NCBI GenBank assembly: GCA_035559995.1 | Contig: DATMAM010000017.1 | Span: 13,889 to 77,888, forward strand | DNA: 64,000 nucleotides | Reading direction: 5' to 3' | Source of the DNA: Candidatus Acidiferrales bacterium | Lineage (GTDB): Bacteria; Desulfobacterota; Binatia; UBA9968 | Shown: positions 5,156 to 51,656 of the stretch, one piece after another | How the letters are laid out: every line of letters starts with the position of its first letter | How positions within the stretch are numbered: the first letter of the stretch is position 1 | The notes under the pieces: generated by a model | Databases searched by the model: none | What the model was told of the DNA's origin: nothing | What the model saw: only the letters and a program-made list of their open reading frames with translations | Position numbers and translations under genes: made by a program

Positions 5156-5172
5156 AGCTAGCCGCCTCGCGC

Positions 5173-5334: not shown

Positions 5335-5359
5335 CGTAGTCCTTCCTGCCCAATCGCCC

Positions 5360-5393
5360 TTATTTTTGAACCACAGCGCCCGGGCTTTGTCAA
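5360..5393 (-). promoter_or_regulatory. Candidate sigma70 promoter of rpmH-rnpA-yidD-yidC-jag
   Basis: Perfect TTGACA -35 (reverse complement of 5388-5393) about 17-19 nt upstream of an A/T-rich -10 region (TTCAAAAAT). Located 40-70 nt upstream of the rpmH ATG. The -10 is weak. Confidence 0.3.
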
Positions 5394-5414
5394 TTTCACG
5401 GCGAGCGGCGCGCG

Positions 5415-6422: not shown

Positions 6423-6481
6423 GCCCGGGAAAAGCCCGCCGGGGAGCGAGGCGCCGGCGGAAAACGACCCCTGTCGTCCCG

Positions 6482-8953: not shown

Positions 8954-9056
8954 GCCTAGGGTCGGGGGCTCAAAGAATCAACCATTCAAAAGGTTCAGGC
9001 CGTTGCGGCCACTTGAACTATTTGAACGGTTTTAAGCCTTTCGAACAGCTTTTGGC

Positions 9057-11730
<2,674 letters not shown>

Positions 11731-12720: not shown

Positions 12721-12723
12721 CGC

Positions 12724-13590: not shown

Positions 13591-13593
13591 CTT

Positions 13594-36006: not shown

Positions 36007-36587
36007 TCCGCATCAACCTTCTTCCCGTAAGAGAGATCGAGGCGAAAGTCGGGAGAAAGCAGGAAGCGCTCATCGGCGCGGCATGCCTTGTCCTTATCGT
36101 CCTGGCGGCCGGAAGTCTCTACGCGTACCAGGCGTGGCAGGTTTCGGCCCTGGAGGCCGAACTGGCCGAGCTGCAGCAGCAGAGCGTTCAGCTCAACAGC
36201 AAGGTGCGCGAGGTGGCGGAACTGCAAAAAAAAGTCGCCGAGCTGAGAGAGAAAAACAAAATTATCGAAGAGCTCGAAAAGAGGCGCGCCGGACCCGCGA
36301 AGGTGATGGAAGGGCTGGCGTCGGTCACTCCGGCGCGGCTCTGGCTGACGGAGTTCAAGGAAACCGGCGGCAACGCCACGCTCAGCGGCTTTGCCACGGA
36401 TAACCAGACGATCGCGGACTTTCTCAAGGGGCTCACGCAGCTTTCGCATTTCAACAACGTGGAGCTGGTCGAAAGCTTGCAGAACGAGCAAGAGAGCGCC
36501 GGCATGAAGAAATTCACGATTCGCTCCACCGTGACCTATCAAGCAGCCGGGAAAGCCGACGGCGTGCCGAAATCGGCCAAGCCATAG
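36003..36587 (+). CDS. pilN: Type IV pilus inner-membrane component PilN
   Basis: MIRINLLP start, single TM, coiled coil. Position is between pilM and pilO. Confidence 0.85.
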   Translation: MIRINLLPVREIEAKVGRKQEALIGAACLVLIVLAAGSLYAYQAWQVSALEAELAELQQQSVQLNSKVREVAELQKKVAELREKNKIIEELEKRRAGPAKVMEGLASVTPARLWLTEFKETGGNATLSGFATDNQTIADFLKGLTQLSHFNNVELVESLQNEQESAGMKKFTIRSTVTYQAAGKADGVPKSAKP

Positions 36588-36595
36588 GAGAGGAC

Positions 36596-37222
36596 GTGAA
36601 CGAACTGTGGCGACAAATCGGCGAGCTTTCCAAAGCGAAGAAGATCGCCCTGTTGGCGCTTTTGATCGTCCTTGTGCTCGCTCTCGACTATAGCTTTCTC
36701 TATTCGCCCCAGGCGAGCCGCATCAGCGACTTAAACGAGCAGATCGCGAACCTCCAGCGCGATCTCGACAAGAAAAAAAGAATCGCGGCGAACCGGCCCA
36801 AGCTTTTGCAGCAGCGGGCGGAGGCCGAAGCTCGCTACAAGGAAGCCACGGCGCGCCTGCCCGCGCAAAAAGAGATTCCGGAGCTGCTGCGCAATATCTC
36901 CACGCGCGCGCGCGAAGCCGGCCTCGAGATCATCCTTTTCAGGCCGCTGGGCGAAAATTACCAGGACTTTTACGCCGAGATTCCGATTGTGCTCGCCGCG
37001 CGCGGCGACTTTCACAGCGTCACCGCGTTTTTCGACGAACTCGGCCGAATGGACCGCATCGTGAACGTTCATAACGTCGAACTCAAAGCAACCAAGACCA
37101 AAGAAGAGCGCCAAACGCTCGAGGTCCAGACGCAAGCGCTGACGTTCCGCTTTCTCGATCAAGCCGAGCGGGAAAGGATCGCGGCGGAAAAGGCGGCCAA
37201 GGAAAAGGCGGCGAAAAAGTGA
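36596..37222 (+). CDS. pilO: Type IV pilus inner-membrane component PilO
   Basis: 208 aa. TM, coiled coil and PilO fold. Position is conserved. Confidence 0.82.
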   Translation: MNELWRQIGELSKAKKIALLALLIVLVLALDYSFLYSPQASRISDLNEQIANLQRDLDKKKRIAANRPKLLQQRAEAEARYKEATARLPAQKEIPELLRNISTRAREAGLEIILFRPLGENYQDFYAEIPIVLAARGDFHSVTAFFDELGRMDRIVNVHNVELKATKTKEERQTLEVQTQALTFRFLDQAERERIAAEKAAKEKAAKK

Positions 37223-37833
37223 TCAGGCGTAGCGGCTGCCACAGTTTGATTTGGGTCGTGCTGTCGTTGTCGGTCGCGGTGCAAGCGATCGCGCAAGAAG
37301 AGGAAAAGACGCCGGCGCACAAGACCAAAGAAGCGCTGGAGAAGTTTTCCAAATTCCCGAGCGCCGTCGGCGAGCGCCTCAAGTCGGCGCGCGACAAGGT
37401 GAAAAACGTCCTGCAGGACGCCCTCGGAGCGCCCCCAGCCAAAAAGGCGGAACCCGACGGCTTGGATGTCCCCAAAAGGCCGGAGAAGACCGAATCCCCG
37501 CAGTACTCCCCGCTCGGCAAGCGCGATCCTTTTGCCCCTGCTCCCAGCCGCAGGGAGGTGCGCCAAGTCAAACGGGGCCTTACGCCCCTCGAGCAATTCG
37601 AGATCGGCCAGCTCAAGCTCGTCGGGATCGTTTGGGATTCCAAAGAGCCGCGGGCCATCGTCGAGGACGCAAGCGGCCTCGGCTACATTATCAAAGTGGG
37701 CACGCCAATTGGGCCGAACGGAGGAAAAGTCAAAGCCATCGCGCCCGATGAGGTGGTCATCCAGGAGTACTACGTCGATTTTTACGGCGCGCGCAAAAGC
37801 CGCGACTTCAGCATGAAATTGCCCTCGGAGTAG
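37219..37833 (+). CDS. pilP: Type IV pilus lipoprotein PilP
   Basis: 204 aa. Signal peptide, Pro/Lys-rich linker and C-terminal beta domain. Located between pilO and pilQ. Confidence 0.75.
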   Translation: MIRRSGCHSLIWVVLSLSVAVQAIAQEEEKTPAHKTKEALEKFSKFPSAVGERLKSARDKVKNVLQDALGAPPAKKAEPDGLDVPKRPEKTESPQYSPLGKRDPFAPAPSRREVRQVKRGLTPLEQFEIGQLKLVGIVWDSKEPRAIVEDASGLGYIIKVGTPIGPNGGKVKAIAPDEVVIQEYYVDFYGARKSRDFSMKLPSE

Positions 37834-37860
37834 TTTTTGCTCTCATACGGAGGAGTCTTG

Positions 37861-39879
37861 ATGCTCGGTCTTGCAGGTTCGGCTCGTTCCCGGCTCCGCC
37901 TCCGGCACCCCCGGTGGCTGGGCGCGTCCCTGGGCTCGGTGGCTGTCGCTGTGGCGATCACGGCCTGCGCCGCCGGTCCCAAAGACGCGCCGCTCGAAAA
38001 GCCGCCTCACAAGGAGGCCGTCCCGGCCGGGCCGCAAACCCAGCCGCCCGCTCCGTCGGTCAAAGAGCAAGCGCTCCCGGGCCGCCCATTGGCGGCGCAA
38101 GAGCTTTCCGTGCGCGAGCAGAACCAGCAAACGGTGATTCGGGTGATTTTCTCGCAGCCGGCCACGCAGTATCGCCACTTCACCCTCGCTCAGCCCGCGC
38201 GCATCGTTCTCGACGTATTCGGCGACGTCGAGCGCGTTCCCAGAGGGGAGACTTTTCGGGTCGAGACCCACTGGGTCGGCAATCTGCGGCTCACGTCGGG
38301 CGAAGGTTATGTTCGCTTGACGGTCGAAATTGCTGCGGCAACCGTGCCGGCGTACGAGATCGAGCCGGAAAACTCGGGCTTAAGGCTCGTGATCGGAGAG
38401 GCCAAACCCGATGTGGCCGCGCGCCGCGAGATCACCCTGATGCGCGGCGGCAAGCGCGCCGATGTGCGCGCGCCCGAGGCCAGGGCCGCGGCTGCCGAAG
38501 GGGCTGCCCCCGCGCCTGCTTCGACCGAAACGGCCGCGGAAAAGAAATATACCGGCCAGAGGATTTCCCTTGATTTTAAGGACGCCGACATCAAAAACGT
38601 CTTCCGGCTGCTCGGGGAGATCGGCGGCCTGAACATCGTTGTCACCCAAGACGTGCAGCGCCGGGTCACCCTGCGCCTGGTCGACGTGCCGTGGGACCAG
38701 GCCCTCGACCTTTTGATCGAGACGCACGGCCTCGGCAAGGAACAGATCGGCAACGTCGTGCGCATCTCGACCGCGGCGCAGCTCAAAGCCGAAAAGGACG
38801 CGCTCGCCGAAGCCAAAAAGTCGCGTGAAAATTTGGAAGAGCTGCAGACGATCTACCTCAGCGTGAACTACGCCAAGGTGAAAGACCTCGAGCCCAAGAT
38901 CAAGCCGCTTCTCACGCCGCGAGGGCAGGTCGTTTTCGACGAGCGGAGCAACACGATTTTCGTCCGCGATATTCGAAGGGCGATCGACGACGTCACGACC
39001 TTGGTTTCCAAAGTCGACACGCGCACCCCGCAGGTCCTGATCGAGTCCAATCTCGTCGAGACCACGCCCTCCTTTGCGCGCGCTCTGGGAATACAGCTGC
39101 AGTTCGACCTCGGGGGCAGCAACGCGACCTTTGACCCCGTCACCGGAGCGGTAACCGGCACGACGCGCCGTATCATCGTTGATCAGCCTGCCGGAACGCC
39201 GTTTGCCGGCGACCCGTTCTTTTCGTTGCTCCAGGGAAAGTTTGGGCCCTTTCGCAACCTGGCGGCCTTTCTGAGCGCGGCCGAAAGCGAGGGCAACATT
39301 CGCATTATCTCGCGCCCTTCCGTGATGACTCTGAACAATGTGGCGTCGACGATCCAGAGCCTGCGGGTGTTGAGAATCTCGCTTCCCAGCTCGACCAATA
39401 TCGCAAGCGGCACCGGCGCCGCTGCCGGGGCGGCCGTGGCGACGGAGAAAGTCCCCGTTGGGATCATTTTGACCGTGGTGCCGCAGGTGTCGGCCGACGG
39501 TTTTATCCTGATGAACATCAGCGTCAAGTCGAGCTCGATCGCCGACTCGCCGACGGTCTCGGGAGGCGGCACGCCCGTGATCCCGTTCGATGAGCTATCG
39601 CGCGAGGCGATTGCCAACGTGCTTGTCCGCGACGGCGAGACGATCGTGATCGGCGGCATCATGAAAGATACAAAGTCGACCTCCGAATCCGGCATTCCCT
39701 ATCTCAAAGACATTCCCATATTGGGCTGGCTCTTCAAGAACATCCGGTGGCAAAAGGATTTTGAAGAGCTGATGGTCTTTATCACGCCGCGCATCATTTC
39801 GGCGGGCTCCGAGAACCTGCCCAGCGCCGAGCAGCTCTGGCGCGAACAGATGCGCAAGACCGAAGGCAGCCAGAGCTAG
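37861..39879 (+). CDS. pilQ: Type IV pilus secretin PilQ
   Basis: ATG at 37861 with GGAGGAG 5 nt upstream. Signal peptide, AMIN-like and N-domains, C-terminal secretin domain (VPYLKDIPILGWLFK...). Confidence 0.9.
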   Translation: MLGLAGSARSRLRLRHPRWLGASLGSVAVAVAITACAAGPKDAPLEKPPHKEAVPAGPQTQPPAPSVKEQALPGRPLAAQELSVREQNQQTVIRVIFSQPATQYRHFTLAQPARIVLDVFGDVERVPRGETFRVETHWVGNLRLTSGEGYVRLTVEIAAATVPAYEIEPENSGLRLVIGEAKPDVAARREITLMRGGKRADVRAPEARAAAAEGAAPAPASTETAAEKKYTGQRISLDFKDADIKNVFRLLGEIGGLNIVVTQDVQRRVTLRLVDVPWDQALDLLIETHGLGKEQIGNVVRISTAAQLKAEKDALAEAKKSRENLEELQTIYLSVNYAKVKDLEPKIKPLLTPRGQVVFDERSNTIFVRDIRRAIDDVTTLVSKVDTRTPQVLIESNLVETTPSFARALGIQLQFDLGGSNATFDPVTGAVTGTTRRIIVDQPAGTPFAGDPFFSLLQGKFGPFRNLAAFLSAAESEGNIRIISRPSVMTLNNVASTIQSLRVLRISLPSSTNIASGTGAAAGAAVATEKVPVGIILTVVPQVSADGFILMNISVKSSSIADSPTVSGGGTPVIPFDELSREAIANVLVRDGETIVIGGIMKDTKSTSESGIPYLKDIPILGWLFKNIRWQKDFEELMVFITPRIISAGSENLPSAEQLWREQMRKTEGSQS

Positions 39880-39918
39880 GCGCGCGGCCGCTCTGGCCTG
39901 GCGCGCTCCTTTCGAGTA
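39880..39918 (+). terminator. GC-rich hairpin between pilQ and aroC (attenuator or partial terminator)
   Basis: GCGCGCGGCC-gctct-GGCCtgGCGCGC, then UCCUUUCG. Stem of about 10 bp that is strong but with a poor U-tract, so read-through into aroC is likely. Confidence 0.3.
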
Positions 39919-39928
39919 AGATACAGCC

Positions 39929-41125
39929 ATGTTGCGTTACTTTACCGCCGGGGAGTCGCACGGCCCGTGCCTGACCGTGATCATTGACGGCGTCCCGGCC
40001 GGCTTTCCCATCGATATCGAGAAGATCAATCACGATCTCTGGCGCCGCCAGCAAGGCTACGGCCGGGGCGGGCGCATGCTCATCGAGAAAGACGAGGTCC
40101 AGGTCCGCTCCGGGATACGCTGGGGAGAGACGCTCGGCTCGCCGGTCGCTTTCGGAATCGAGAACAGGGACTGGAAGAACTGGACGAAGAAAATGTCGCC
40201 GTTCCCGGAAGACCGGGACGAAAGCATCGCGGTAACCAAGCCGCGGCCCGGCCACGCCGATTTGGCCGGCGTGTTCAAGTATCACCATTCCGACATCCGC
40301 AACGTCCTCGAGCGCGCGAGCGCGCGCGATACGGTGTCGCGCACGGCCGTGGGCTCCTTTTGCAAGCAGCTCCTTTCTCCGTTCGGCATCAGGGTGCTCG
40401 GCTACATCCGCTCGATCGGAGGGATCGAGGCCGCGATGGACGGCCTGTCCTACGAGGAGATTTTCGCACGCGCCGACCAGTCGCCGGTCAGGGTTGCCGA
40501 CCCAGAGGCGCAAGAAAAGATCATCGCCCAAATTGAGGACTGTAAAAAGAAGGGCGATACTTTGGGCGGCATCTTCGAGATCGTGGCGCTCGGCTTGCCA
40601 CCCGGACTCGGCAGCCACACGCAGTGGGACCGCAAGCTCGATGGCAGGCTTGCGCAGGCGCTCATGAGCGTCCAGGCCATCAAGGGGGTGGAAATTGGCC
40701 TGGGGTTTGAAATGGCGCGCCGGCGCGGGTCGGAAGTGCACGACGAGATATTTTTCGACCCGCAGAAGATGATTGCGGGACGAACGCCGCGGGTCGTCCC
40801 GACGGGGTTTTATCGCGGGAGCAACAACTCCGGGGGTACGGAAGGCGGGATGTCGAACGGCTCGCCTCTGGTTGTGCGCGTGGCGATGAAGCCGATCTCG
40901 ACCCTCATGAGCCCGCTCCAGTCGGTCGACATGCGCTCGAAGCAGGCCGCTGACGCTTCGGTCGAACGCTCCGACGTCTGTTCGGCGCCGGCCGCAGCCG
41001 TCGTCGGTGAGGCGGTCGTCGCTTTCGAGCTGGCTCGCGCCTTTCTCGAAAAATTCGGCGGCGACTCGCTCACCGAGATCCGGCGCAACTACGAGGGCTA
41101 TCTCGAGCAGATCAAAAACTTTTAG
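39929..41125 (+). CDS. aroC: Chorismate synthase
   Basis: 398 aa. MLRYFTAGESHGP N-terminus and other conserved chorismate synthase motifs. Confidence 0.95.
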   Translation: MLRYFTAGESHGPCLTVIIDGVPAGFPIDIEKINHDLWRRQQGYGRGGRMLIEKDEVQVRSGIRWGETLGSPVAFGIENRDWKNWTKKMSPFPEDRDESIAVTKPRPGHADLAGVFKYHHSDIRNVLERASARDTVSRTAVGSFCKQLLSPFGIRVLGYIRSIGGIEAAMDGLSYEEIFARADQSPVRVADPEAQEKIIAQIEDCKKKGDTLGGIFEIVALGLPPGLGSHTQWDRKLDGRLAQALMSVQAIKGVEIGLGFEMARRRGSEVHDEIFFDPQKMIAGRTPRVVPTGFYRGSNNSGGTEGGMSNGSPLVVRVAMKPISTLMSPLQSVDMRSKQAADASVERSDVCSAPAAAVVGEAVVAFELARAFLEKFGGDSLTEIRRNYEGYLEQIKNF

Positions 41126-41130
41126 CGACG

Positions 41131-41661
41131 TTGCGCTGGCGCCCCGACAGAAATATCGTTCTCACCGGTTTTATGGCCGTGGGCAAAAGCGCGGTCGGGA
41201 AACGACTCGCCGAGAAACTTAACCGCCCTTTCGTCGACCTGGATCTGGCGATCGAGCGGCGCGAACAAATGACCGTGCAGGAGATTTTTGCGACCAAGGG
41301 CGAGCCGCACTTCCGCAAGCTGGAAAAAGAGCTGTTGCGCGAGGCGCTCGCCGAGCACGGGCGCGTCGTCGCCACCGGCGGCGGGGCGGTTGCGGACGAA
41401 GAAAACCTGCTTCTGATAAAAAGGGATAGCCTCCTCGTTTGTCTCACGGCCGCGCCCGAAACGATCCTCGCCCGCGCGGAAGCCGAGGGTAACAAGCGGC
41501 CGCTGCTTGCCGGGACAGACAAGCTTCAAGCGATCAGGACAATGCTCTCGGCGCGGGAGGCCGCTTACCGGCAGGCGGATTTGACCGTGGACAGCGACCG
41601 GCGCTCGGTGGACGAGGTGGTGGAGGAAATCGTTCGAAGGATCGAAAAGATTGCATCCTAG
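41131..41661 (+). CDS. aroK: Shikimate kinase
   Basis: 176 aa with TTG start. Walker A GFMAVGKSAVGK and shikimate-binding region. Confidence 0.9.
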   Translation: MRWRPDRNIVLTGFMAVGKSAVGKRLAEKLNRPFVDLDLAIERREQMTVQEIFATKGEPHFRKLEKELLREALAEHGRVVATGGGAVADEENLLLIKRDSLLVCLTAAPETILARAEAEGNKRPLLAGTDKLQAIRTMLSAREAAYRQADLTVDSDRRSVDEVVEEIVRRIEKIAS

Positions 41662-41695
41662 CCGGCCACGCAGGCGGGATTTTGGGCGCAGCGCG

Positions 41696-42784
41696 ATGCG
41701 CACCCTGACGGTCAATCTTGATGCTCGCTCGTATCCGATCTCGATCGGCGCGGGGATGCTTTCTCGCGCCGGCGAGCTTCTCGCGCCGCTTGTGGCGGGA
41801 AAGAAGACAGCCGTCATTACGAATCCCACGGTGAGCAGGCTCTATCTCAAGCCGCTGCGGGATTCGCTGGCGGGCGCCGGCGCAAACGTCAGCGAAATCT
41901 CCATCCCGGACGGCGAGGAGCACAAAAACCTTGCCACGCTCGGGCGCGTTTACGATCAGCTTATCGAGAAAAGATTCGAGCGAGCTTGTGTCCTCGTGGC
42001 GCTCGGCGGCGGGGTCGTCGGAGACCTGGCGGGATTTGCGGCGGCAACCTTCCTGAGGGGCGTGCCGTATGTCCAGATCCCCACGACGCTCCTGGCTCAG
42101 GTAGACTCGAGCGTGGGCGGGAAAACGGGCATCAATCACCGGGAGGGTAAGAACCTAATCGGCGCCTTCTATCAACCGCGCGCCGTCCTCATCGATGTCG
42201 ACGTCCTGCGCACCTTGCCGCGGCGCGAGCTTGCCGCCGGCCTGGCGGAAGTGATGAAGTACGGGGTCATCATGGACCCGGCGCTCTTTGCGCTCCTCGA
42301 AGAGAAGCTCGAGCCAATCATGGCGCTGGATGAGGGGCTTCTCGTCGAGATGATCGGCGCGTCGTGCGCCGATAAGGCGCGGGTGGTGGAGAAAGACGAG
42401 ACGGAGGGCGATGAGCGCGCCGTGCTCAATTTCGGCCATACGGTCGGGCACGCGCTCGAGGCGGCGACGGATTACCGCCGGTTCTTGCACGGCGAGGCGG
42501 TGGCGATCGGCATGGTCCAGGCCGCGCGCATCTCGCGCCTTTTGGGTTTCTGCGACGACACCACGGTCGCTCGCGTGCGCCGGTTGATTCAGCGCGCGGG
42601 GCTACCCACGGAGCTCCCCCGCGAGCTTGATTTGAACCGGCTCGCGGAAAAGATCGAGCTCGACAAGAAATCGTCCGGCGCCCGGGTCAGGTTTGTCTGC
42701 TGCACCGGTATCGGCGCCACTCGTTTTCACAGCCTGGAGCCCAGCGAGATCGTGCGCCTGCTGTCGCGGCCTGAGACGGAGTGA
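41696..42784 (+). CDS. aroB: 3-dehydroquinate synthase
   Basis: Start taken at MRTLTVNLDARSYPISIG (ATG 41696). The track ORF begins 15 codons earlier and overlaps aroK. NAD-binding GGGVVGDLAGF and metal-binding His residues present. Confidence 0.92.
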   Translation: MRTLTVNLDARSYPISIGAGMLSRAGELLAPLVAGKKTAVITNPTVSRLYLKPLRDSLAGAGANVSEISIPDGEEHKNLATLGRVYDQLIEKRFERACVLVALGGGVVGDLAGFAAATFLRGVPYVQIPTTLLAQVDSSVGGKTGINHREGKNLIGAFYQPRAVLIDVDVLRTLPRRELAAGLAEVMKYGVIMDPALFALLEEKLEPIMALDEGLLVEMIGASCADKARVVEKDETEGDERAVLNFGHTVGHALEAATDYRRFLHGEAVAIGMVQAARISRLLGFCDDTTVARVRRLIQRAGLPTELPRELDLNRLAEKIELDKKSSGARVRFVCCTGIGATRFHSLEPSEIVRLLSRPETE

Positions 42785-42791: not shown

Positions 42792-43250
42792 ATGGCCAAG
42801 CCCAACAAGCTTCTCGTCCTGCACGGCCCGAACCTGAACCTTTTGGGGAAGCGGCAGCCGGAGATTTACGGCCGCCTTACGCTCGAGGAGATCAATCGGG
42901 CGATCCGCGCGCTCGCCAAGGAGCTGCACATCGAGGTGGAGATTCGTCAATCCAACCACGAGGGAGAGCTGGTGACGTGGGTGCAGCAGGCGGCGGAAAG
43001 CTTTGGCGCGCTGGTCATCAACGCCGGCGCCTTCACTCACACGAGCATCGCTCTTCGAGACGCCCTGGTCGCGGCCGGCATTCCGGCGGTGGAAGTCCAC
43101 CTCTCGAACATCTATAAACGCGAAGACTTCCGCAGGCATTCGTTACTCGCCGAAGTCGTCGCCGGGCAAATTACCGGTTTCGGGGTAAACAGCTATCTCT
43201 TGGGAGTGCGCGCGGCCGCGGACTATCTTCTATCGGCCGCTAGTCGATAA
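42792..43250 (+). CDS. aroQ: Type II 3-dehydroquinate dehydratase
   Basis: Start taken at MAKPNKLLVLHGPNLNLLGKR (ATG 42792). This is the classic type II DHQase N-terminus. Confidence 0.9.
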   Translation: MAKPNKLLVLHGPNLNLLGKRQPEIYGRLTLEEINRAIRALAKELHIEVEIRQSNHEGELVTWVQQAAESFGALVINAGAFTHTSIALRDALVAAGIPAVEVHLSNIYKREDFRRHSLLAEVVAGQITGFGVNSYLLGVRAAADYLLSAASR

Positions 43251-44013
43251 AGAGCGCGCCCGTGTCGAAGTTTTTCTGCTTCATCTCCTGAATCAATTGA
43301 TCTCTCTCCCGCTCCAGACGCGCGATCCGACCGCGCAGCTCGCTGAGCTCTCTTTCCTGCTCCGAATAGGAAGGCGGCGGCGGATTGACGCTGGGCGGCG
43401 GCGCGCTCGGGTTGAGCTGGATTGTGTCCGGGCCCACGCCCGTGAACGGCGACGGGGTTTCAAGGCGCACGCCCCCGGCATCGGCGGGAACTCCGGACCG
43501 ATGCTGGACGTCGCGCAGGCGCGAAATGAGATCCTCCGTGCGCGCTTTCCTCGCCTCTTCGGTGTCGAGAATGGCGGGCTCCGCGCCCGGCCTGCCGCGG
43601 CTGAGGAGCAAGTAGCGATCGCGCGCCGCCCTGAGCTCGCGGGTGACTTGCTCCAACTTTTTCTGGTATTCCTTCTCCTCTTTGCCCTGCTCCTCTTTTA
43701 AAGAGGCCTGCTCCTTGCGCTCGCCTTCGGCTTTCTTGGTCTCGCGCAGCGGCTTTGTCTCGCCGGGCGAAGTCGAGGCCCCGTCCGCGACGCCTTCAGC
43801 GCTCCTCAGGATCGTTGCGATCTGGTCTCTCGGGATGGCGATCTCGCCCCCGAAGCTTAAAAATTTCACCATCCCGCCCTCCTCCCGGTAAGATTGGACC
43901 GTAAGGCGCCGGCCGTTTTTGAGGACGAGCGTATATTGAGCCCAAGAGAGATCAAACCAGGCGAGAAAGAAAACAAAGGCGCCAAGCGCGACGAGCTTAG
44001 CCGGTCTCGACAT
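43240..44013 (-). CDS. Membrane-anchored coiled-coil protein with poly-Pro tract. Function unknown
   Basis: Start taken at MSRPAKLVALGAFVFFLAWF (ATG 44013). Signal/TM helix, small beta domain, Lys/Glu-rich coiled coil, PPPSVNPPPPSY, and a C-terminal coiled coil. Overlaps the aroQ end convergently by 11 nt. Confidence 0.55.
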   Translation of the reverse strand: MSRPAKLVALGAFVFFLAWFDLSWAQYTLVLKNGRRLTVQSYREEGGMVKFLSFGGEIAIPRDQIATILRSAEGVADGASTSPGETKPLRETKKAEGERKEQASLKEEQGKEEKEYQKKLEQVTRELRAARDRYLLLSRGRPGAEPAILDTEEARKARTEDLISRLRDVQHRSGVPADAGGVRLETPSPFTGVGPDTIQLNPSAPPPSVNPPPPSYSEQERELSELRGRIARLERERDQLIQEMKQKNFDTGALFID

Positions 44014-44135
44014 CACAAGAACGCAGTATACATCGCCGCCGCCAAACGGGCAAAAGCGTGGAGCGGCAGGCAAACGCGGCCGGGCGCATTTACACCCATG
44101 GAGGTTCGTGTTAACGTTAGTTCGCTCGGAAGCTT

Positions 44136-45395
44136 ATGGCACGCGCGCTTCGCCAACTTACTTTGGTTCTTTCGCTCGTTTTATTTCCCGCGCTCGCCCG
44201 CGCACAGCCCAAACTCCAAATCACGTCGCCGAAAAGCGGCGCGCGCATTTCTCAGGAAAAACCCGTCGTGCTCGTAAGCGGCAAGGTCTCGACGCTCCCG
44301 GAGCGAAACCCCAACGTGGATATCCTCTTTGTTCTCGACACTTCCGCGAGCACGGCGCAGTACGCGGGCATCGACTTCAGCGACGCGTCCAGCCGGCTAC
44401 CGCCGGAACCGCGGCGATGGGCCAGGCCTCAGATCGGCATTTACGGCGGCGGCTTCGGCATCGGCGGCGGCCTGCCGCTCCACGATTTGCAGAGCTCGGT
44501 CCTCGCCGCGGAGGTCGCCGCCAGCCAGCGGCTTTTATCTCAGCTCAATTCTCAGACGACGCGTGTCGGGATCGTGACCTTCGCCGCGGACGCGCGCCTC
44601 GTCCAGCCGCTTACGCACGATTTTGACAGCGTCAAGCGCGCGCTCGACGACATTTTGGCGAACGGGCCGTACGGCGGCACCAACATGGCCGCAGCGGTGC
44701 GCCTCGGAGTGCGCGAGCTGGCCGGCCTCGGAGAGAGCCCGAAACGCGCCGACGCCGTCAAGGTACAGTTCTTTCTGACCGACGGTATTCCCACGTTGCC
44801 GATCGGGGGCTCCCGCAGGGCTGCGCCGGAGGACACCCAGCTCGCCGTCAACGCGGCGCGGATCGCGGGAAAGGCAGGCATTAAAATCTACGTGTTTGCT
44901 CTCGGCGACGAGGCGCTCTCCTACCCGGCGGCGGCCGTTGGCATCGCCCGGGAAAGCGGCGGGCTGTTTACTCCCGTCGTCCGACCGGCGGATATCCTCG
45001 CCGTTTTGGAAAAGATTTCCGTCGTCGGCATCGACCATGTTCAAATCATCAATGAAACGAACCGGCAAAAAGCTTCGCAGATGCGGCTTGCGGCCGATGG
45101 AAACTTCTCCGGCGCGGTCCCCGTCGTCGAAGGAAACAATCAAATCCAGGTGATCGCGCGCTCGAGCAGCGGGGCAGTCGTCCAGGATTCGATTGCGATC
45201 TACTACGAGCGGAGCCGCCAACAGTCGTTAGACCTGGAAGTGTTCTTGGAGCGCGAGAAGAGCCTGCAATTGCAGGTGGAGCGGTTGGGTAGGAGCCCGG
45301 AGGCTCTGCAAGGTGAAATCGAGCGCGCTCGCGACGAGAGCTTGCGCAAAGTTGAGCAGCCGCCGCCGCCCGCGCGCGAAGGGCCTCCCCGCTAA
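44136..45395 (+). CDS. Secreted von Willebrand factor A (VWA) domain protein
   Basis: Signal peptide (LVLSLVLFPALARA-QP). MIDAS motif DxSxS (ILFVLDTSAS) plus downstream T and D residues of the VWA fold. C-terminal coiled coil and PPPP tail. Confidence 0.8.
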   Translation: MARALRQLTLVLSLVLFPALARAQPKLQITSPKSGARISQEKPVVLVSGKVSTLPERNPNVDILFVLDTSASTAQYAGIDFSDASSRLPPEPRRWARPQIGIYGGGFGIGGGLPLHDLQSSVLAAEVAASQRLLSQLNSQTTRVGIVTFAADARLVQPLTHDFDSVKRALDDILANGPYGGTNMAAAVRLGVRELAGLGESPKRADAVKVQFFLTDGIPTLPIGGSRRAAPEDTQLAVNAARIAGKAGIKIYVFALGDEALSYPAAAVGIARESGGLFTPVVRPADILAVLEKISVVGIDHVQIINETNRQKASQMRLAADGNFSGAVPVVEGNNQIQVIARSSSGAVVQDSIAIYYERSRQQSLDLEVFLEREKSLQLQVERLGRSPEALQGEIERARDESLRKVEQPPPPAREGPPR

Positions 45396-45829
45396 CGCGA
45401 CGGCGCCGTTGCCCTTTTTTCCGCTTCTGCGGCGATCGCGATCTCGGAAGCCCCGGCCTGCTTGACGAGCGACAGCACCTTCACGACATCGCCGAGCGCA
45501 ACTTCCCGGTCGCCTCTCAGGATAACGATCTTTTCCGGCGCGCCGCCAAAGGCTTCGCTCAGCACGCGCGCCAGCTCGGGTTCGGCGACTCTCCTTTGGT
45601 TCACGAAAATTTCCCGCTTCGGCGTGAGCGTTACGACGACGCCTCTGGGTTCGGACTGCGTCTGCGCCGCTTTGGGGAGATTCACCTTGCCGCCGGACTC
45701 GACGATCGCCGAGCTTGTGATCATAAAAATAATGAGCAGCACGAGAAAGATATCCGTGAGCGGCGTGATGTTGATCTCGGCGACGATGTCGTCGCCGTTC
45801 TGGGAGCCGATTGGATTGAGCGCCATCAT
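45392..45829 (-). CDS. exbD: Biopolymer transport protein ExbD/TolR
   Basis: 145 aa. INITPLTDIFLVLLIIFMI TM and periplasmic ExbD fold. GAGGAG Shine-Dalgarno. Confidence 0.85.
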   Translation of the reverse strand: MMALNPIGSQNGDDIVAEINITPLTDIFLVLLIIFMITSSAIVESGGKVNLPKAAQTQSEPRGVVVTLTPKREIFVNQRRVAEPELARVLSEAFGGAPEKIVILRGDREVALGDVVKVLSLVKQAGASEIAIAAEAEKRATAPSR

Positions 45830-45920: not shown

Positions 45921-46544
45921 CTAGCCGCTTGCCAGCTTGAGGATTTTTCCCACCTGGATGCGGAAAAGCCCGTTCAAATGGTTGATCCGCGTCTGAAAGT
46001 AGTTGTAAAAAACAAGCGCGACGATCGCGACCCCCAGCCCCAGCGCCGTCGCGACCAGAGCCTCGGAAATTCCCGCCGCCACCACCGTAAATCCGCCGGT
46101 CCCGTGAACCGCCATGCTCTCAAAGGACTTGATGATGCCGACCACGGTCCCAAGCAAGCCGATAAACGGCGCGCTGCTTGCGACGGTTCCCAGCAGCCAA
46201 AGGTTTTTCTTGAGTTTCTGCGATTCTTCGAACATTGACTCGGCGGCGTAGAGGTTGAGCGCCTCCAAGTTATGGTTTCCGAGCTGCGCGATGACGCCCT
46301 GAAAGATTCTCGCCGCCGGGCATTCGGCGTTTTGCTTGCAGATCGCGATCGCCAGCTCTTTTTGCCCTTTGCGGATCGGATCTACGATGGCATCCGCGAG
46401 CCTTAAGGTCGCCGAGCCCACGTTTCTTAATACCCAAAGTCGTTCGATGACGACGGCCACACTGATCACCGACATGGCGATCAACGGATAGGTGGCGATC
46501 GCTCCTTTGTGAATGATGGTGATCAAGTCCAACCCTTGTTCCAT
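45921..46544 (-). CDS. exbB: MotA/TolQ/ExbB proton-channel protein
   Basis: Start taken at MEQGLDLITIIHKG (ATG 46544, GGAG 8 nt upstream). Three TM helices and a conserved C-terminal channel region. Confidence 0.85.
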   Translation of the reverse strand: MEQGLDLITIIHKGAIATYPLIAMSVISVAVVIERLWVLRNVGSATLRLADAIVDPIRKGQKELAIAICKQNAECPAARIFQGVIAQLGNHNLEALNLYAAESMFEESQKLKKNLWLLGTVASSAPFIGLLGTVVGIIKSFESMAVHGTGGFTVVAAGISEALVATALGLGVAIVALVFYNYFQTRINHLNGLFRIQVGKILKLASG

Positions 46545-46613
46545 GATGCTACTCCGCTTCCGTGCTGGCCACAGAGACACTAAGCTCGCTTGTGGGTGAT
46601 CTTGAGAAAAGAG

Positions 46614-47627
46614 CTACCCTCTCATTCGAACGGCGATCGTGAACCGAATGATGAGGGGCTCGCCCGCGAGATCCTTTAAGCTTTCCGGGATCGGCGGAAA
46701 AGGCGAGGCTTTTTTCATGGCTTCGAGCGCGCTCGCGTTGATCTTCGGATCGGTCGATTCCAACACCTCGGCTTGCGTCAACTTGCCGGCCCGATCGACG
46801 GTGAAGCGGACGCTCACTTTATGAACACCCGACGCGTCTTCTGGATATTTCCACACCGCGTAAACGCGTTTCTCTATCGTTTTGAGGTACGCGCCGTAAT
46901 CGGCGTTCGGCTTCCCCTTGATCCCGGAAGCGCTTCCCCCGCCGGCTCCCGTTCCCGTTCCCCCGCCTGCCGTTCCGGCTCCACCGCGAATCCCGCCCGC
47001 TACGCCGTAAGGACCGCTCCCGGAGCCGCTTCCCTTTAAGGCTCCCGGTATTTCGGCGCCCTCCTTGAGAGCATAAGCGCCGCCTCCGCCCGTGCTTTCC
47101 TTCGCCGCCACGCTGCCCGGCTGTTTCAATGCGCCGGCAACCGACGCCGGAAGGTGAGGCGCGGCGCTTTTTGTGGGAAGCTGTACCAGAGAATCGGCCG
47201 AGGCCTCGCTGGCGTCGATGCGCGGCGCGCGCGCCGGCGCATCGGCGATGGCCTTCGGCGCGGGCAGCGCCGGCTCGGGGGTCGGGCTCGAGCCGGCCAT
47301 TACCTCTTCGGGGGCGCTTTGCGCGGCTGGCGCCGTGGGCCTCGCTTGCGCCTGCCGCGGTGCCACGGGCGTACCCAGGCGAGGCAGCGTTCGCGGTCCT
47401 CCGGGGCCGCGTGCGGGACCGATACTTTTGTCGGAGGCGCCGGCGCCGAATTCGATCAGGCTGACCGGGATCGTGAGATCGGGCTTGCCAGCCTGAATCG
47501 ACCAGGCCAGGTGAGCGAGCGCGTAAAACACAACGGCGTGGAAGCCCAGCGAGACGAGCAGGAACGGACTGGCCAGGATCGATCCTAAGGCAAGATCACG
47601 CCGGCTATCGAACCTTTCCGCTGTCAT
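46614..47627 (-). CDS. tonB: TonB-family energy transducer (Pro-rich and Gly-rich linkers)
   Basis: N-terminal TM, Pro/Ala-rich region, long Gly-rich tract (GGGGAYALKEGAEIPGALKGSGSGSGPYGVAGGIRGGAGTAGGGTGTGAGGG) and C-terminal TonB_C domain (YPEDASGVHKVSVRFTVDRAGKL..). Confidence 0.75.
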   Translation of the reverse strand: MTAERFDSRRDLALGSILASPFLLVSLGFHAVVFYALAHLAWSIQAGKPDLTIPVSLIEFGAGASDKSIGPARGPGGPRTLPRLGTPVAPRQAQARPTAPAAQSAPEEVMAGSSPTPEPALPAPKAIADAPARAPRIDASEASADSLVQLPTKSAAPHLPASVAGALKQPGSVAAKESTGGGGAYALKEGAEIPGALKGSGSGSGPYGVAGGIRGGAGTAGGGTGTGAGGGSASGIKGKPNADYGAYLKTIEKRVYAVWKYPEDASGVHKVSVRFTVDRAGKLTQAEVLESTDPKINASALEAMKKASPFPPIPESLKDLAGEPLIIRFTIAVRMRG

Positions 47628-48759
47628 CTTTCACGAACTTACTATCCGGATTTCCCGGCGGAAAGGAAAGGCTTTGATCCTTCTGGGCGAGAAGCTCAAG
47701 CCCCGCCGCGCTTACATCGCGGCGCACGAGCTTTCCCGCATCGTAGTAAGACCACAAGTCGACCGCGCCGTCGCCGTTAAGGTCTTTCTCCTCTCGGACG
47801 AGGAGCTCGCCTGCGCCCGGATCGTAGTAGCTCCACGAGTCGAAGCGCCCGTCGCCATCGGTGTCGCGCTCCACCTTGGCCAGCTTGCCGTTTCGATACA
47901 GAACGCGGTAGCTTACCCTGCCGTCTCCACGCTCGTCGCGCTCTTCGCGCACCATCGCATCCCCGTCATAGACGTAGAACACATCGGGCATCGCATCGGC
48001 ATTGGTATCGACTTCGCGCCGCACGAGCTTCCCGTCTTTGAAACTCGACCACGTATCGACCCGACCGTCGCCGTCGGTATCTTCCTCCTGGCGGATCACC
48101 TCGCCGGGCTTTGCGGGATTATAGTAGACCCACAAATCCGGAATGCCGTCTTTGTTCATATCGCGCACTTCGACGTTTTTGAAACCAACCTGCTGGGGCA
48201 CGCTCGCGCGTTGCTGCTTCGGAAGCGAAGCTAAAGCCTCCTGGGCGCCCGGGGGATGTGCGTCGTTCTGTGAACTCCGGGGCGTTGCCTGAGGCGAGCC
48301 CGGATCCGACTTGAGCGCATCCCGCGGCGCTCCGGCGCTCGCCACCTGATTATCCAGTTGCCGCTGGTTTTCAAGTTCGCGCTCGATTTGCGCTTCGAGC
48401 TCCCGATCCTTTGCCTGTTCGGCTTGAACGCGCGCGTTCATCGCGGCCAAGTGCGAGTCCACCGTCAACAGGCCCGCGATAAGCCCGATCACGAGCCCCC
48501 CACCGGCGCCGTAGGGGCCGCCGATCGAGCCCCCCATGACGAAACCTTCCATCATTTTGTCCCACACGTACTGGCCGCGCTGGCCGCCGGTCGGCACAAC
48601 TGGCGGTGCCGCTGCCGCCGAGGGGCTTGCCGCCGGACCCGCCGCGCTGGAAGGAGAGGCTGGATTGGAGAGAGCGCCTCCTGGACCCGACGCCGAGAGG
48701 GGAGCACAGGCGGCGGCGAAGAGCATGCCTGCCGCCAGGGCGACTGGCACGGCTTTCAT
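47605..48759 (-). CDS. Exported (lipo)protein with coiled coil and about 7 tandem 24-aa DxDGDG/YY repeats (paralogue B)
   Basis: Start taken at MKAVPVALAAGMLFAAACAP (ATG 48759, GAGAGG Shine-Dalgarno, ATGA overlap with paralogue A). Gly-zipper hydrophobic segment, coiled coil, repeats (...YYDPGAGELLVREEKDLNGDGAVDLWS...). Stop overlaps the tonB start by 23 nt. Confidence 0.7.
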   Translation of the reverse strand: MKAVPVALAAGMLFAAACAPLSASGPGGALSNPASPSSAAGPAASPSAAAAPPVVPTGGQRGQYVWDKMMEGFVMGGSIGGPYGAGGGLVIGLIAGLLTVDSHLAAMNARVQAEQAKDRELEAQIERELENQRQLDNQVASAGAPRDALKSDPGSPQATPRSSQNDAHPPGAQEALASLPKQQRASVPQQVGFKNVEVRDMNKDGIPDLWVYYNPAKPGEVIRQEEDTDGDGRVDTWSSFKDGKLVRREVDTNADAMPDVFYVYDGDAMVREERDERGDGRVSYRVLYRNGKLAKVERDTDGDGRFDSWSYYDPGAGELLVREEKDLNGDGAVDLWSYYDAGKLVRRDVSAAGLELLAQKDQSLSFPPGNPDSKFVKDDSGKVR

Positions 48760-49988
48760 TTTAAGCCTCTCGCTTGCGCCACTCCCGACGGCTTGGCCGC
48801 AAGGCCTTTTTCGCCGCTGGCGGCCCGCAGCGCCTCGTCGACCGAAGCAAAGGGTAGCGGGTTTTGCTCGGGCTCGACCTCCGGCGGCGCTTCCTGGCGA
48901 ACGATCCGCCCGTCGGCAAAGTGATAGCGCGCGTCGAGTTTCCCGTTCGCGTTTCGATCTTCGTCCTGGCGGACTTTCTTGCCGTTCTCGTAGTACACCC
49001 AAACGTCAACCCGCCGGTCGTTGTTTGTGTCGGCCTCTTGCAGGACGACCTGTTCTCCCTGATACCACATGCGGAGATCCAGAAAGCCGTCGCCGGTAGA
49101 GTCCCGCTCCTCGTAAATGAGCTTGCCGTCCCGAAAGACAAAGACGGTGTCTATCCTCCCATTTCCCCCGGAGTCTTTCAAGCGGCGCACCAACTGCCCG
49201 CGAGCATAAAACTCGAAAAGGTCCATGCGCCCGCGCGCGCGCGTGTCCTCTTCCATCCGGACGAGCTGCTCGCCTTCAAAATAAAGCACGCGATCGACCT
49301 TGCCGTCGCCGTTTCGGTCTTCTTCCTGGCGGACGAGCCGGCCGCCCGCGTAATATCCCCACAGGTTGACCTTTCCCGACTTCTTCTGATCCACCTCCTT
49401 GCGCACCAGCTCGCCGCCTTGAAAATAAGAGTAGCTGTCCATCCGGCCGTCGCCGTCCGTGTCCTCGTCGATGCGGCCGATCTGCGCGTCGGCGAACCAC
49501 ACGACCCGATCCACCCGACCGTCGAAGTTGGCGTCCTCCTCGGCGCGCACCGGCTGGTTGTTTTCGTGAAAGACCCACGCATCGGGTTTGCCATCGCGAT
49601 TGTTGTCGATCTCCTTTCGCTCGAGCTCCCCGCGCGCATTGTAGAACTGAACGAGGTCCACGACGCCGTCGCGGCGCGAGGAAATTTCCTGTCGGCGAAG
49701 CTGGCCGTTTTCGTACACGCTCGTCACGTCGACCTTGCCATCGAAGTTTTCATCCTGCTCGATCTTTTGGATGTTTCCGCCCGGATCATAGAAAATGGTC
49801 CGGTCCATCTTGCCATCGCCGTTGGTGTCTCGCTCTTGGCGCACGACATTGCCGTTTTGGTCGTAAAAAAAGCGCGCCGCAACCTGCGCGCGCGCCCGGG
49901 GCTGAAGCAGAAGGAGGATGACGGTTCCGGCCAGGAAGAGCGTGAGGGTTTTTGCAAGAGATCCTGCGGGTCGCGCTCGGGGAGACAA
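48756..49988 (-). CDS. Secreted protein made almost entirely of about 14 tandem 24-aa repeats, consensus YYxNGxLVRxExDxNGDGKVDxxx (paralogue A)
   Basis: Signal peptide ...LAKTLTLFLAGTVILLLLQPRARAQ. Likely TTG start at 49988. The track ORF begins at GTG 50126. Repeats run to the C-terminus. Confidence 0.65.
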   Translation of the reverse strand: MSPRARPAGSLAKTLTLFLAGTVILLLLQPRARAQVAARFFYDQNGNVVRQERDTNGDGKMDRTIFYDPGGNIQKIEQDENFDGKVDVTSVYENGQLRRQEISSRRDGVVDLVQFYNARGELERKEIDNNRDGKPDAWVFHENNQPVRAEEDANFDGRVDRVVWFADAQIGRIDEDTDGDGRMDSYSYFQGGELVRKEVDQKKSGKVNLWGYYAGGRLVRQEEDRNGDGKVDRVLYFEGEQLVRMEEDTRARGRMDLFEFYARGQLVRRLKDSGGNGRIDTVFVFRDGKLIYEERDSTGDGFLDLRMWYQGEQVVLQEADTNNDRRVDVWVYYENGKKVRQDEDRNANGKLDARYHFADGRIVRQEAPPEVEPEQNPLPFASVDEALRAASGEKGLAAKPSGVAQARGLK

Positions 49989-50140
49989 GGCGCTTTGCGG
50001 GACGCTCGAACGTTCGGCGCCGCGGGCCGCTGACGCGGAAGAGAGCGGGCGAAAAGATCGACGAGGCCGCGTGCTGCACTCCTGCTCGGGCACGGTCAGT
50101 CCCCCACGAAGCGCTTCTCGCCGCACGCGGTGAAGATCGC

Positions 50141-50578
50141 TCAGGAAGATGCGGGCGACGCCTTTTCGTCGGCCTTGGGTGACGCTCTGCGGGCGCTTTT
50201 TGGAGTCGTTTCAGCTTCGCCGGCGCGGCCGATCAGCTCGACCACGCACAGCGGCGCGTGATCGCCGCGGCGCCAACCGACCTTGACCGTCCGCGTGTAG
50301 CCGCCAGCGCGCCCTTGGAACCGCGGCGCGATCGTTTCGAAGAGTTTTCGCACGACGGCTCGCTCGCGAATGATCCGCGCCGCGCGCCGGCGCGCGTTGA
50401 GGGTTCCTTCTTTGCCGAGCGAGATCACCTGATCGGCCCAGGCGCGCAGCAGCTTCGCCTTCGCGTCGGTCGTTTGAATGCGCTCGTTCTTGAGGAGCGC
50501 GGTCACCAGGTTGCGCATCAAGGCCGCTCGATGCGCACCGCTGCGGTTCAACTTCTTGCCTGCCTTTAAGTGGCGCAT
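50141..50578 (-). CDS. rplQ: 50S ribosomal protein L17
   Basis: [37 protein letters not shown] is the L17 signature. Last gene of the alpha operon. Confidence 0.95.
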
Positions 50579-50621: not shown

Positions 50622-51656
50622 TCATACCGTCTCCTTTTCTCGCGCCCGGCGGCGATTGTCGAGTTCTTCGCGCGACGGGAAATGGTCGATCTTCATGCCG
50701 AGCTCAAGCCCCATCTCGCGCAGAATTTCCTTGATCTCGTTCAGCGACTTGCGCCCGAAATTCTTCGTCCGCAGCATCTCCTGCTCGGTCTTCTGCACCA
50801 GCTCGCCGATGTACTTGATATCGGCGTTTTGCAGGCAGTTCTGCGAGCGCACGGAGAATTCCAGCTCATCGACGCTGCGGAACAGATTCTCGTTCAGCGG
50901 CGGCTTCGCGGCGTCTTGATCCGTATCGCTTTTCGGCGGCTCCTCGACGAAGTTGATGAAGATGCTCAGCTGGTCCTGCAGAATTTTGGCCGCGTACGCG
51001 ACGGCGTCGTCGGGCTTGACGCTGCCGTCGGTCCAGACCTCCAAAACCAGCCGATCGTAATCGGTGCGCTGCCCCACGCGCGCGTTGGTGACGGCGAAAT
51101 TCACCTTGCGCACGGGCGAAAACACCGCGTCGAGAAAGATCGTGTCGACCGGCTGCTCTTCTTGTTTGTTGCGCTCGGCGGGAACGTAGCCGCGGCCGAT
51201 CTTCGCCACCATCTCCGCCACCAATTCGCCCTCGCGCGCCAGCGTCGCGATGTGCTGCTCCGGGTTGAGAATCTCCACGTTGGCGCTCGCCAGGATGTCG
51301 CCCGCCTGGACGACCTTCGGGCCCTTGGCTTCGATCTTCAACGTCTCCTGTTCGACGCCGTGCAACCGCAGCCGGACCTCCTTGAGGTTGAGCAGGATGT
51401 CGGTCACGTCCTCGGTGATTCCGGGCAAGGTCGAGAACTCGTGCAGCACGCCCTTCAAGCGGACCGATACGATCGCCGCTCCCATCAGCGAGGAGAGCAA
51501 CGTGCGGCGCAACGAATTCCCGATCGTTTGGCCGAATCCTCGCTCCAGGGGCTCGCAGGAAAATTTCCCGTACTGGGCGGTCAGGCTCTTCTCGTCGACT
51601 TCGAGCCTTTTGGGCTTGATGAGGTCCGTCCAATTTTTTTGCGCGATATCTCCCAC
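50622..51656 (-). CDS. rpoA: DNA-directed RNA polymerase subunit alpha
   Basis: 344 aa. N-terminal dimerisation domain ([17 protein letters not shown]) and C-terminal alphaCTD. Confidence 0.97.

Follow-up and report, generated by a model that had tools for sequence, protein, structure and literature searches.

Exported hairpin-repeat proteins encoded with TonB-type motor genes in Candidatus Binatia

To our knowledge, TonB and Tol are the only known routes by which inner-membrane energy reaches the outer membrane of diderm bacteria, and the accessory parts of these systems define how the energy is used. A stretch of 64,000 nucleotides from a Candidatus Acidiferrales bacterium of the GTDB lineage Binatia (assembly GCA_035559995.1, contig DATMAM010000017.1, positions 13,889 to 77,888 of the forward strand; hereafter the window) carries two tandem genes, A and B, for exported repeat proteins, followed by genes for a TonB-family protein and an ExbB-ExbD motor. 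This arrangement raises the question of what such repeat proteins do beside such a motor. A first-pass annotation, made from the letters of the window, had described A and B as paralogues built from a 24-residue repeat and called for a survey of their co-occurrence with TonB and ExbBD. Comparing gene order, repeat architecture and predicted structure across relatives, we propose, with moderate confidence, that A and B assist a TonB-type motor as accessory partners in the cell envelope.

Genes A, B, the TonB-family gene, exbB and exbD form one operon on the minus strand, facing a plus-strand gene for a secreted VWA protein (44136-45395). Gene A (48756-49988) encodes an all-repeat protein of 410 residues, and gene B (47605-48759) encodes a 384-residue lipoprotein with a repeat domain. 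The TonB-family gene (46614-47627, 337 residues) overlaps B by 23 nt, and the exbB/tolQ-like (45921-46580) and exbD/tolR-like (45392-45829) motor genes follow it. The TonB-family protein has an N-terminal transmembrane helix with an S-x3-H-x6-L pattern, a long Pro/Ala/Gly linker and a C-terminal TonB domain (PF13103, 39.7 bits with a cutoff of 22; TIGR01352, 42.4 bits with a cutoff of 27.1); its nearest PDB sequences are TonB (6sly, 5lw8), and judged by its sequence it is a bona fide TonB-family member. The motor proteins matched PF01618 (107 bits) and PF02472 (98 bits), respectively, and their best NCBIfam models were TolQ (111 bits, cutoff 221) and TolR (90 bits, cutoff 127). The VWA protein (PF00092, PF13519) combines a signal peptide, a DTSAS motif of the metal-ion-dependent adhesion site (MIDAS), an Ig-like domain and a C-terminal charged helix. 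Its N-terminus, MARALRQLTLVLSLVLFPALARA, is free of His and Asp and ends in a signal-peptidase-like site before QP, and the orthologue at a Methylomirabilales-like locus (L164) is alike. Promoter and terminator scans of the rplQ-to-A interval and of the operon interior gave no signal above shuffles.

The linkage between the repeat proteins and the motor was conserved across Binatia. When the B alignment was used to scan species-representative genomes, 70 loci were recovered; almost all belong to Candidatus Binatia or to metagenome-assembled genomes (MAGs) bearing older 'Deltaproteobacteria' names. B, TonB, ExbB and ExbD occurred in the window order in 42 of the 70 loci, and among these canonical loci A was visible upstream in 38 and the convergent VWA gene in 41. 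Six further loci were cut after TonB, and in five the genes were rearranged: TonB preceded A, and a divergent motor pair shared an operon with VWA. Three loci contained B and VWA only, and six contained B alone, several of the latter being second B copies of genomes already among other loci; the remaining eight comprised four that were too short downstream and four distant matches unlike Binatia. The clusters of the window and of the Binatia loci, like the two clusters L164 and L008 described below, all lack a TonB-dependent transporter. As a side observation, a second B paralogue sometimes adjoins a second VWA gene.

Related clusters were found outside Binatia. A locus close to proteins named Methylomirabilales (L164) carries, on one strand, genes for a glycine-zipper lipoprotein, TonB, an A orthologue, a B-type protein, VWA, ExbB and ExbD. 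In this locus and in one from Ca. Methylomirabilis (L163), the VWA and B-type genes share 4 nt. An unclassified MAG (L008) encodes TonB, a 1132-residue A-type protein and a B-type protein, facing genes for a GlyZipper-OmpA lipoprotein, VWA, ExbB and ExbD.

An independent second subfamily, the P0006 type (P0004-P0021), consists of all-repeat proteins of ~500-630 residues with ~22 units and ~30-31% identity to A. A metagenome scan with an alignment of these proteins yielded 80 loci (L083-L162). Among the 61 loci whose sequence continued for 1.5 kb or more past the repeat gene, 60 had exbB-exbD as the next genes downstream, in most cases with tonB after them. Together with the 42 Binatia loci, this made the co-occurrence survey strongly positive. 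A TonB-dependent receptor is often near the P0006-type operons. In one locus (L080) the repeat gene lies between such a receptor and exbB, with a periplasmic binding protein, FecCD and an ATP-binding cassette (ABC) ATPase alongside, and in another (L007) it adjoins CobN/CbiK/CbiZ and a receptor. The P0006-type ribbon protein seems to work for ordinary transporter loci. Neither a VWA gene nor the B-type zipper/helix module was found in the P0006-type loci, so that the ribbon protein and the Ton-type motor are the element common to both systems. The motor proteins of the two subfamilies are only ~33% identical.

Both genes of the pair are conserved as proteins. They lie downstream of rpoA (50622-51656) and rplQ (50141-50578), and both minus-strand ORFs (open reading frames) are present as the first-pass annotation had drawn them, down to the ATGA joint, in which the ATG of B at 48759 overlaps the TGA stop of A at 48756-48758. 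The stop-to-stop frame of A extends to 50126; among the start candidates, the TTG of 49988 yields a plausible signal peptide, MSPRARPAGSLAKTLTLFLAGTVILLLLQPRARA, with putative cleavage before QV, and the gene call agrees with the orthologues and with a confident structure model described below. The ATG start of B agrees with its orthologues and their alignment. Protein A aligned without gaps over 377 residues with orthologues at 51% and 66% identity, indicating that the number and order of its units are conserved, and B has more than 120 orthologues at 48-64% identity. On this conservation the coding status of A and B, for which the earlier annotation had argued from the regularity of the repeat, is beyond doubt, and a reading of the pair as a non-coding artefact was ruled out. 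An exact-sequence look-up of B returned no identical protein in the public collection; the closest loci were at 60-66% identity. The paralogy of A and B is confined to the repeat domain (43% identity over 149 residues, E = 1e-29), which narrows the original description of two tandem paralogues. Plus-strand ORFs at 47674-48234 (186 residues) and 48864-50033 (389 residues) run antisense to B and A; we rejected them as genes, the simplest explanation being that they are antisense shadows of GC-rich repeat-coding sequence.

The repeat was resolved with a profile hidden Markov model (HMM) that was seeded with four units and then iterated. It counted 14 units in A (independent E values of 4e-9 to 2e-14, the last unit being of half length) and six units plus a leading loop in B, in agreement with the ~14 and ~7 copies read from the sequence earlier, and a six-frame scan of the whole window gave no match beyond A and B. 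Units are 24 residues long, a few of them 25-27, with a mean pairwise identity of 34%, and Tandem Repeats Finder detected no 72-bp tandem repeat at the DNA level; the array is therefore old and not a recent expansion. Each unit consists of a strand, a 2-residue turn at the G of YYxxGxL, a second strand and a 9-residue loop. The pattern D-x-[DN]-x-[DN]-G-x-x-D fits seven of the 13 loops of A, three differ from it at one position, and three are basic or degenerate (SSRRDGVVD, DQKKSGKVN and DTRARGRMD), the same three being degenerate in the orthologues too. Four of the six loops of B are canonical, one is near-canonical and one is degenerate; the last loop, DLNGDGxxD, is invariant in 59 orthologues.

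Protein A is little more than this array. A signal peptide (residues 1-34; 49887-49988, minus strand, as are all parts of A and B) was read from the sequence, with a modelled helix at residues 13-27 of low predicted local distance difference test (pLDDT) score and a putative cleavage site between ARA and QV. The 14 units of 24-25 residues follow (residues 37-367; 48888-49880), as delimited by the repeat HMM, the listing of units and the DSSP strand pattern. Conservation is high in the first hairpin, ARFFYD..G..RQ..D.NGDG.MDR. The C-terminal tail (residues 368-410; 48759-48887) is weakly conserved except for a P...F motif and contains a short modelled helix at residues 383-395.

Protein B is more composite, and its lipoprotein-like signal, Pro/Ala-rich linker and Gly zipper were all found as first described. 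The signal peptide with its lipobox (residues 1-18; 48706-48759) ends in Cys18, which the alignment places in at least 90% of 59 orthologues, with the consensus L-A-G-C. The Pro/Ala-rich linker (residues 19-57; 48589-48705) has pLDDT below 50 for residues 19-50. It leads into a single modelled helix of residues 58-142 (pLDDT ~90, charged in its second half), within which lies the glycine zipper (residues 72-99, GFVMGGSIGGPYGAGGGLVIGLIAGLLT; 48463-48546) with invariant G72, G81, G84, G88, G92 and T99; across the 59 orthologues the segment QRxQYxWDKxMEG plus glycine zipper is strictly conserved. The charged part of the helix (residues 101-142; 48334-48459; pLDDT ~90) has invariant E114, L121, E122, E128 and Q132. 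A coiled coil had been predicted here: the long helix is borne out by the model, and its coiled-coil state is probable. A disordered linker, variable in length and sequence (residues 143-191; 48187-48333; pLDDT below 50), separates the helix from the repeat domain (residues 192-353; 47701-48186), where the repeat HMM, the unit listing and the model agree on a leading loop and six hairpin units.

An AlphaFold2 model of A, built on a 62-sequence alignment, had a mean pLDDT of 88.6 and contained only strands over residues 37-366, with strands of 6-7 residues joined by 2-residue turns that alternate with 9-residue loops. The modelled ribbon is an open antiparallel hairpin sheet, probably of a single layer, and from the order of the strands the acidic loops would all lie along one of its edges. 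In Foldseek searches of the PDB, the best local matches of A were the YD-repeat sheets of Rhs, Tc and teneurin proteins (probability 1.0, E = 1e-9, TM-score ~0.15) and the best global matches were engineered single-layer OspA sheets (TM-score 0.36). The ribbon of B matched the hairpin sheet domains of TarM/SdgB/GtfA, the MORN domain of SET7/9, YD repeats and OspA. The earlier suggestion to decide between a beta-solenoid and a beta-propeller was thus answered by neither: the period of 24 residues does not correspond to a blade of ~60, and the models are open hairpin ribbons rather than propellers or solenoids. An EF-hand or dockerin domain was likewise rejected, as DSSP assigned only strands, and no helix-loop-helix, in the repeat regions of A and B. 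The likeness of the DxDGDGxxD loop to a Ca2+ loop held, with one refinement: because the loop is flanked by two beta strands, its best analogue is the beta-hairpin Ca2+ site of integrin and FG-GAP repeats and not an EF-hand or dockerin helix-loop-helix.

The repeat is a hybrid, as first noted, of a MORN-variant YYxxGxL hairpin and a DxDGDGxxD loop, and Pfam detects the two halves only separately, as a MORN_2-like hairpin and an FG-GAP_3/EF-hand/Dockerin loop. With MORN_2 (PF07661), A scored 29.9 bits against a cutoff of 29.6 with no individual stretch passing, six of 62 relatives matched at E ≤ 0.01, and B gave no match. A and B share with canonical MORN repeats and with MORN_2/COG2849 'YwqK' proteins a hairpin of ~22-24 residues with aromatics, a Gly turn and hydrophobic positions (YYxxGxL) in an elongated antiparallel sheet, and the SET7/9 match of B fits this likeness; they differ in the second loop, which in A and B is the 9-residue D-x-[DN]-x-[DN]-G-x-x-D, and in the marginal profile match. 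On the loop side, FG-GAP_3 matched 53 of the 59 B orthologues over the loop only, and FG-GAP matched B with 21.4 bits (cutoff 26.9) at profile positions 36-61 of 61 only. Integrin alpha/FG-GAP (VCBS) repeats thus resemble A and B in the DxDxDGxxD loop between two strands, whereas the models of A and B show no 60-residue blade or propeller and only the loop end of the profile is matched. EF-hand_1 scored 13.7 bits (cutoff 25.4), Dockerin_1 gave weak matches in three of the 62 relatives and in one of the 59 B orthologues, and TSP_3 gave no match in A or B at E ≤ 1; as the repeats also contain no cysteine, a thrombospondin-3 repeat was rejected. YD/RHS repeats of Rhs proteins, Tc toxins and teneurins share the strand-turn-strand-loop logic, and some relatives combine both repeat types, but A and B have a longer unit with a Ca2+-type loop and no closed shell, plug, protease or toxin domain. 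RHS_repeat (PF05593) matched neither A nor B, and two of the 62 relatives at E ≤ 0.01; Pfam and NCBIfam detected no additional domain in A or B.

Two families appear to be built from the same kind of repeat. DUF6802 (PF20615) gave A 17 bits (cutoff 27) and matched 39 of the 62 relatives at E ≤ 0.01 (best 2e-11); by these profile matches DUF6802 belongs to the same repeat superfamily, while A and B themselves are not captured by its profile. No function and no literature were found for it. The NCBIfam model Lsa25.6 (NF050087; Leptospira LIC13059) gave A 75.5 bits (E = 4e-21) and B 53.5 bits (E = 2e-14), below its cutoff of 150. Lsa25.6 is, unlike A and B, a small Leptospira protein with in vitro host-ligand binding data only: the recombinant protein bound laminin, plasminogen and fibrinogen in vitro (PMC7662565, PMC8657130). 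A search of PDB chain sequences with A and B yielded nothing usable. At E ≤ 1e-3 an exhaustive HMMER search retrieved 3,604 cluster representatives, of which 1,104 passed E ≤ 1e-10, indicating that the repeat is common in metagenomes; its catalogue entries are limited to a DUF and to misleading names (YwqK antitoxin, VCBS). Giant relatives are fusions with HEAT, RHS, cadherin and PepSY domains, and no functional lead came from them. Across the Pfam-wide and family-specific profile searches, no characterised or curated family claims A or B, which agrees with the earlier failure to name one, and by this measure the repeat family is uncharacterised.

The coupling of A and B to a TonB-family gene and an ExbB-ExbD motor, with a conserved secreted VWA neighbour, led us to read them as partners in force transduction. 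A and B probably serve a TonB-type force-transduction system as partners in the periplasm or at the outer membrane, with Ca2+ stabilising them, and the mechanism may be pictured as follows. The acidic loops, to judge from their motif, would bind Ca2+ after export and stiffen the ribbon. A would be soluble in the periplasm, and B would be anchored by its lipid and glycine zipper, probably in the outer membrane, would probably oligomerise through its long helix and would carry its shorter ribbon on a flexible linker. TonB and TolA bind partners by strand addition. Powered by the proton-driven ExbB-ExbD motor, the TonB-like protein could engage an exposed edge strand of the ribbon, the VWA protein could join through its MIDAS site or terminal helix, and the motor would then pull, via the TonB-like protein, on an assembly of A and B, and possibly VWA, in a logic more like Tol-Pal than nutrient import. 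We hold the specific contacts among A, B, VWA and the TonB-like protein with far less confidence than the partnership as such.

Comparison with known systems placed the cluster between several of them. Since it contains no transporter and its motor genes match the TolQ and TolR models best, its logic is nearer to Tol-Pal or to VWA-motor systems than to nutrient import. Like the Tol-Pal system (TolQ-TolR-TolA-TolB-Pal-CpoB), it would combine a proton-driven motor of the 5:2 type, a transducer of the TonB/TolA family, a soluble beta-rich periplasmic protein and a lipoprotein, without an outer-membrane transporter, and the L008 cluster includes a Pal-like OmpA lipoprotein. Unlike Tol-Pal, the window cluster has neither a TolB propeller nor an OmpA/Pal domain (no PD40/TolB or OmpA match was found in A, B or the neighbouring genes with Pfam and NCBIfam), its gene order is reversed, it has an extra VWA protein, and the C-terminal domain of its transducer is nearest to TonB. 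With the Ton system it shares genes for a TonB C-terminal domain, ExbB and ExbD, but it differs in the missing TonB-dependent transporter.

Proteins with vWA domains encoded beside tolQ/tolR-like motors were recently proposed as new force transducers (Williams-Jones et al. 2025, PMC12204202). The published classes are tethered to the membrane through a helix with an SHLS motif or a pore-helix Asp, and replace TonB or TolA (PMC12204202). The present VWA gene resembles them in its tight linkage to the motor, with which it shares an operon in the variant Binatia loci, L008 and L164; it differs in its cleavable-looking signal peptide and in the presence of a separate TonB-family protein. Hairpin-repeat partners are not mentioned in PMC12204202, and our literature search on MORN, YwqK, DUF6802 or FG-GAP with TonB/ExbB, and on Binatota with TonB, returned nothing linking the repeat to Ton systems. 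A further-reaching reading, to which we give only tentative credence, is that the cluster represents a distinct, undescribed class of proton-driven envelope force transduction in Binatia, Methylomirabilales-like and other uncultured lineages, in which Ca2+-loaded ribbons replace TolB/Pal or the Glt platform and CglB of Myxococcus, and that the repeat family is a dedicated docking partner of TonB motors.

Several observations weigh against a force-transducing partnership, or against parts of it. Three of the 13 loops of A are basic rather than acidic, and conservedly so, which sits poorly with Ca2+ binding as read from the motif. Asp follows Cys18 in many B orthologues (consensus L-A-G-C-D-P-V-P), and Ala in the window copy; in E. 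coli, lipoproteins with Asp in the position following the lipidated Cys are retained in the inner membrane, and by analogy this residue may bear on which membrane holds B. The P0006-type subfamily, with its place in ordinary transporter loci, would fit a general Ton accessory better than a Tol-Pal-like role. Some members of the family (L009, L081, L077) have no Ton genes nearby, and in Binatia loci L024, L035, L037, L041, L002, L003, L021, L044, L054, L055, L068 and L071 a second B paralogue lies away from motor genes.

These observations leave room for other roles. A and B might be periplasmic binders or buffers of di- or trivalent cations that catch metal leaving an outer-membrane transporter during TonB-dependent import, a role suggested by the P0006-type relatives placed between a receptor and exbB beside binding protein, FecCD and ABC genes (L080) or next to CobN/CbiK/CbiZ (L007), and by up to 13 acidic loops per protein. 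We consider this unlikely, as the Binatia, Methylomirabilales-like and L008 clusters contain no receptor or ABC importer, all-oxygen D/N loops of such geometry typically serve as structural Ca2+ sites, several loops are conserved as basic, non-binding variants, and a chaperone would not need the lipoprotein, zipper and helix architecture of B. Rather improbable, too, is a purely passive role, in which A and B would be periplasmic spacers or tethers functionally unrelated to the motor and shared descent alone would maintain the gene order. The lengths of the ribbon and the helix, as estimated from the models, are of periplasmic scale, and the family members and second B paralogues distant from Ton genes would be expected under it; stop/start overlaps, however, tie A to B and B to the TonB-family gene, the motor link survives rearrangement, and exbB-exbD-tonB genes accompany the repeat in two subfamilies with different gene orders and motors that have diverged to ~33% identity.

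The matches to Lsa25.6 (E = 4e-21 for A and 2e-14 for B) raise the alternative of surface or secreted adhesins, with the VWA protein as co-adhesin and a motor that aids export or exposure or is merely adjacent. Recombinant Lsa25.6 binds host ligands (PMC7662565, PMC8657130), VWA domains are classical adhesion modules, and the Myxococcus VWA adhesin CglB acts with a TolQR-like motor, as cited in PMC12204202. The scores nevertheless reach half of the cutoff (75.5 and 53.5 bits against 150), the binding data come from refolded protein in vitro, B is near single-copy and strongly conserved in housekeeping surroundings (ribosomal operon and aro genes), and neither a secretion system nor an outer-membrane barrel is encoded in the cluster; we regard adhesins as quite unlikely. 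A last reading, as YwqK-type antitoxins or Rhs-type toxin-packaging proteins, is prompted by the Joint Genome Institute (JGI) label 'antitoxin component YwqK' on many relatives, by best Foldseek matches to Rhs shells and by two large relatives that carry true RHS repeats. The YwqK name stems merely from the weak MORN_2 match, however, and both proteins carry signals for export; they lack a toxin domain as well as Rhs core and cleavage motifs, nothing like YwqJ is encoded next to them, 14 hairpins are too few to close a shell, and the TM-score to Rhs is only 0.15. The probability of this reading is negligible, as the architecture effectively refutes it already. We thus retain a partnership of A and B with the TonB-type motor as our preferred explanation.

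Beyond the operon, a gene for an exported protein with low-complexity and charged-helix regions (43240-44073, minus strand; ORF of 277 residues, likely start ATG at 44013) is a conserved neighbour, found in the same position in most Binatia loci at 32-51% identity; it matched no Pfam or NCBIfam family. In one Binatia locus (L004, 4487-6313) and in the Ca. Methylomirabilis locus (L163, 3366-5096), a gene for a PMT/ArnT-like glycosyltransferase (PMT, PMT_2) adjoins the cluster, which could be coincidence or a link to envelope glycosylation. Further along the window (34915-42784, plus strand), pilM (34915-36006) and a gene for a pilQ-type secretin with AMIN and STN domains (37837-39879) flank three unannotated ORFs in a pilMNOPQ-like layout, followed by aroC (39929-41125) and ORFs of the size of aroK and aroB. 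L004 shows the same pil-aro arrangement, an instance of ordinary synteny that lies ~0.5 kb beyond the cluster end. At 2865-11486 (minus strand), yidC, gyrA and gyrB occur together, and the cumulative GC skew falls steadily across the window; this region may be near the replication origin. An ORF of 656 residues at 12658-14628 (plus strand) matched no Pfam family and has a third-position GC of 0.70, below that of its neighbours, and may be a lineage-specific gene or a spurious ORF.

Together, these results describe a family of ~3,600 sequence clusters that is genetically locked to TonB-ExbB-ExbD motors in two deep subfamilies, one of which belongs to a seven-gene set that includes a VWA protein and has no transporter. 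The predicted ribbon is an unusual protein design, a single-layer sheet with a row of Ca2+-type sites on one edge. Binatia and Methylomirabilales have no or few cultured members. If the proposed partnership is true, it would extend the cooperation of VWA proteins with TolQR-like motors that was recently proposed, and the repeat proteins would be a new class of partners for TonB-type motors and a testable handle on the envelope biology of Binatia and Methylomirabilales.

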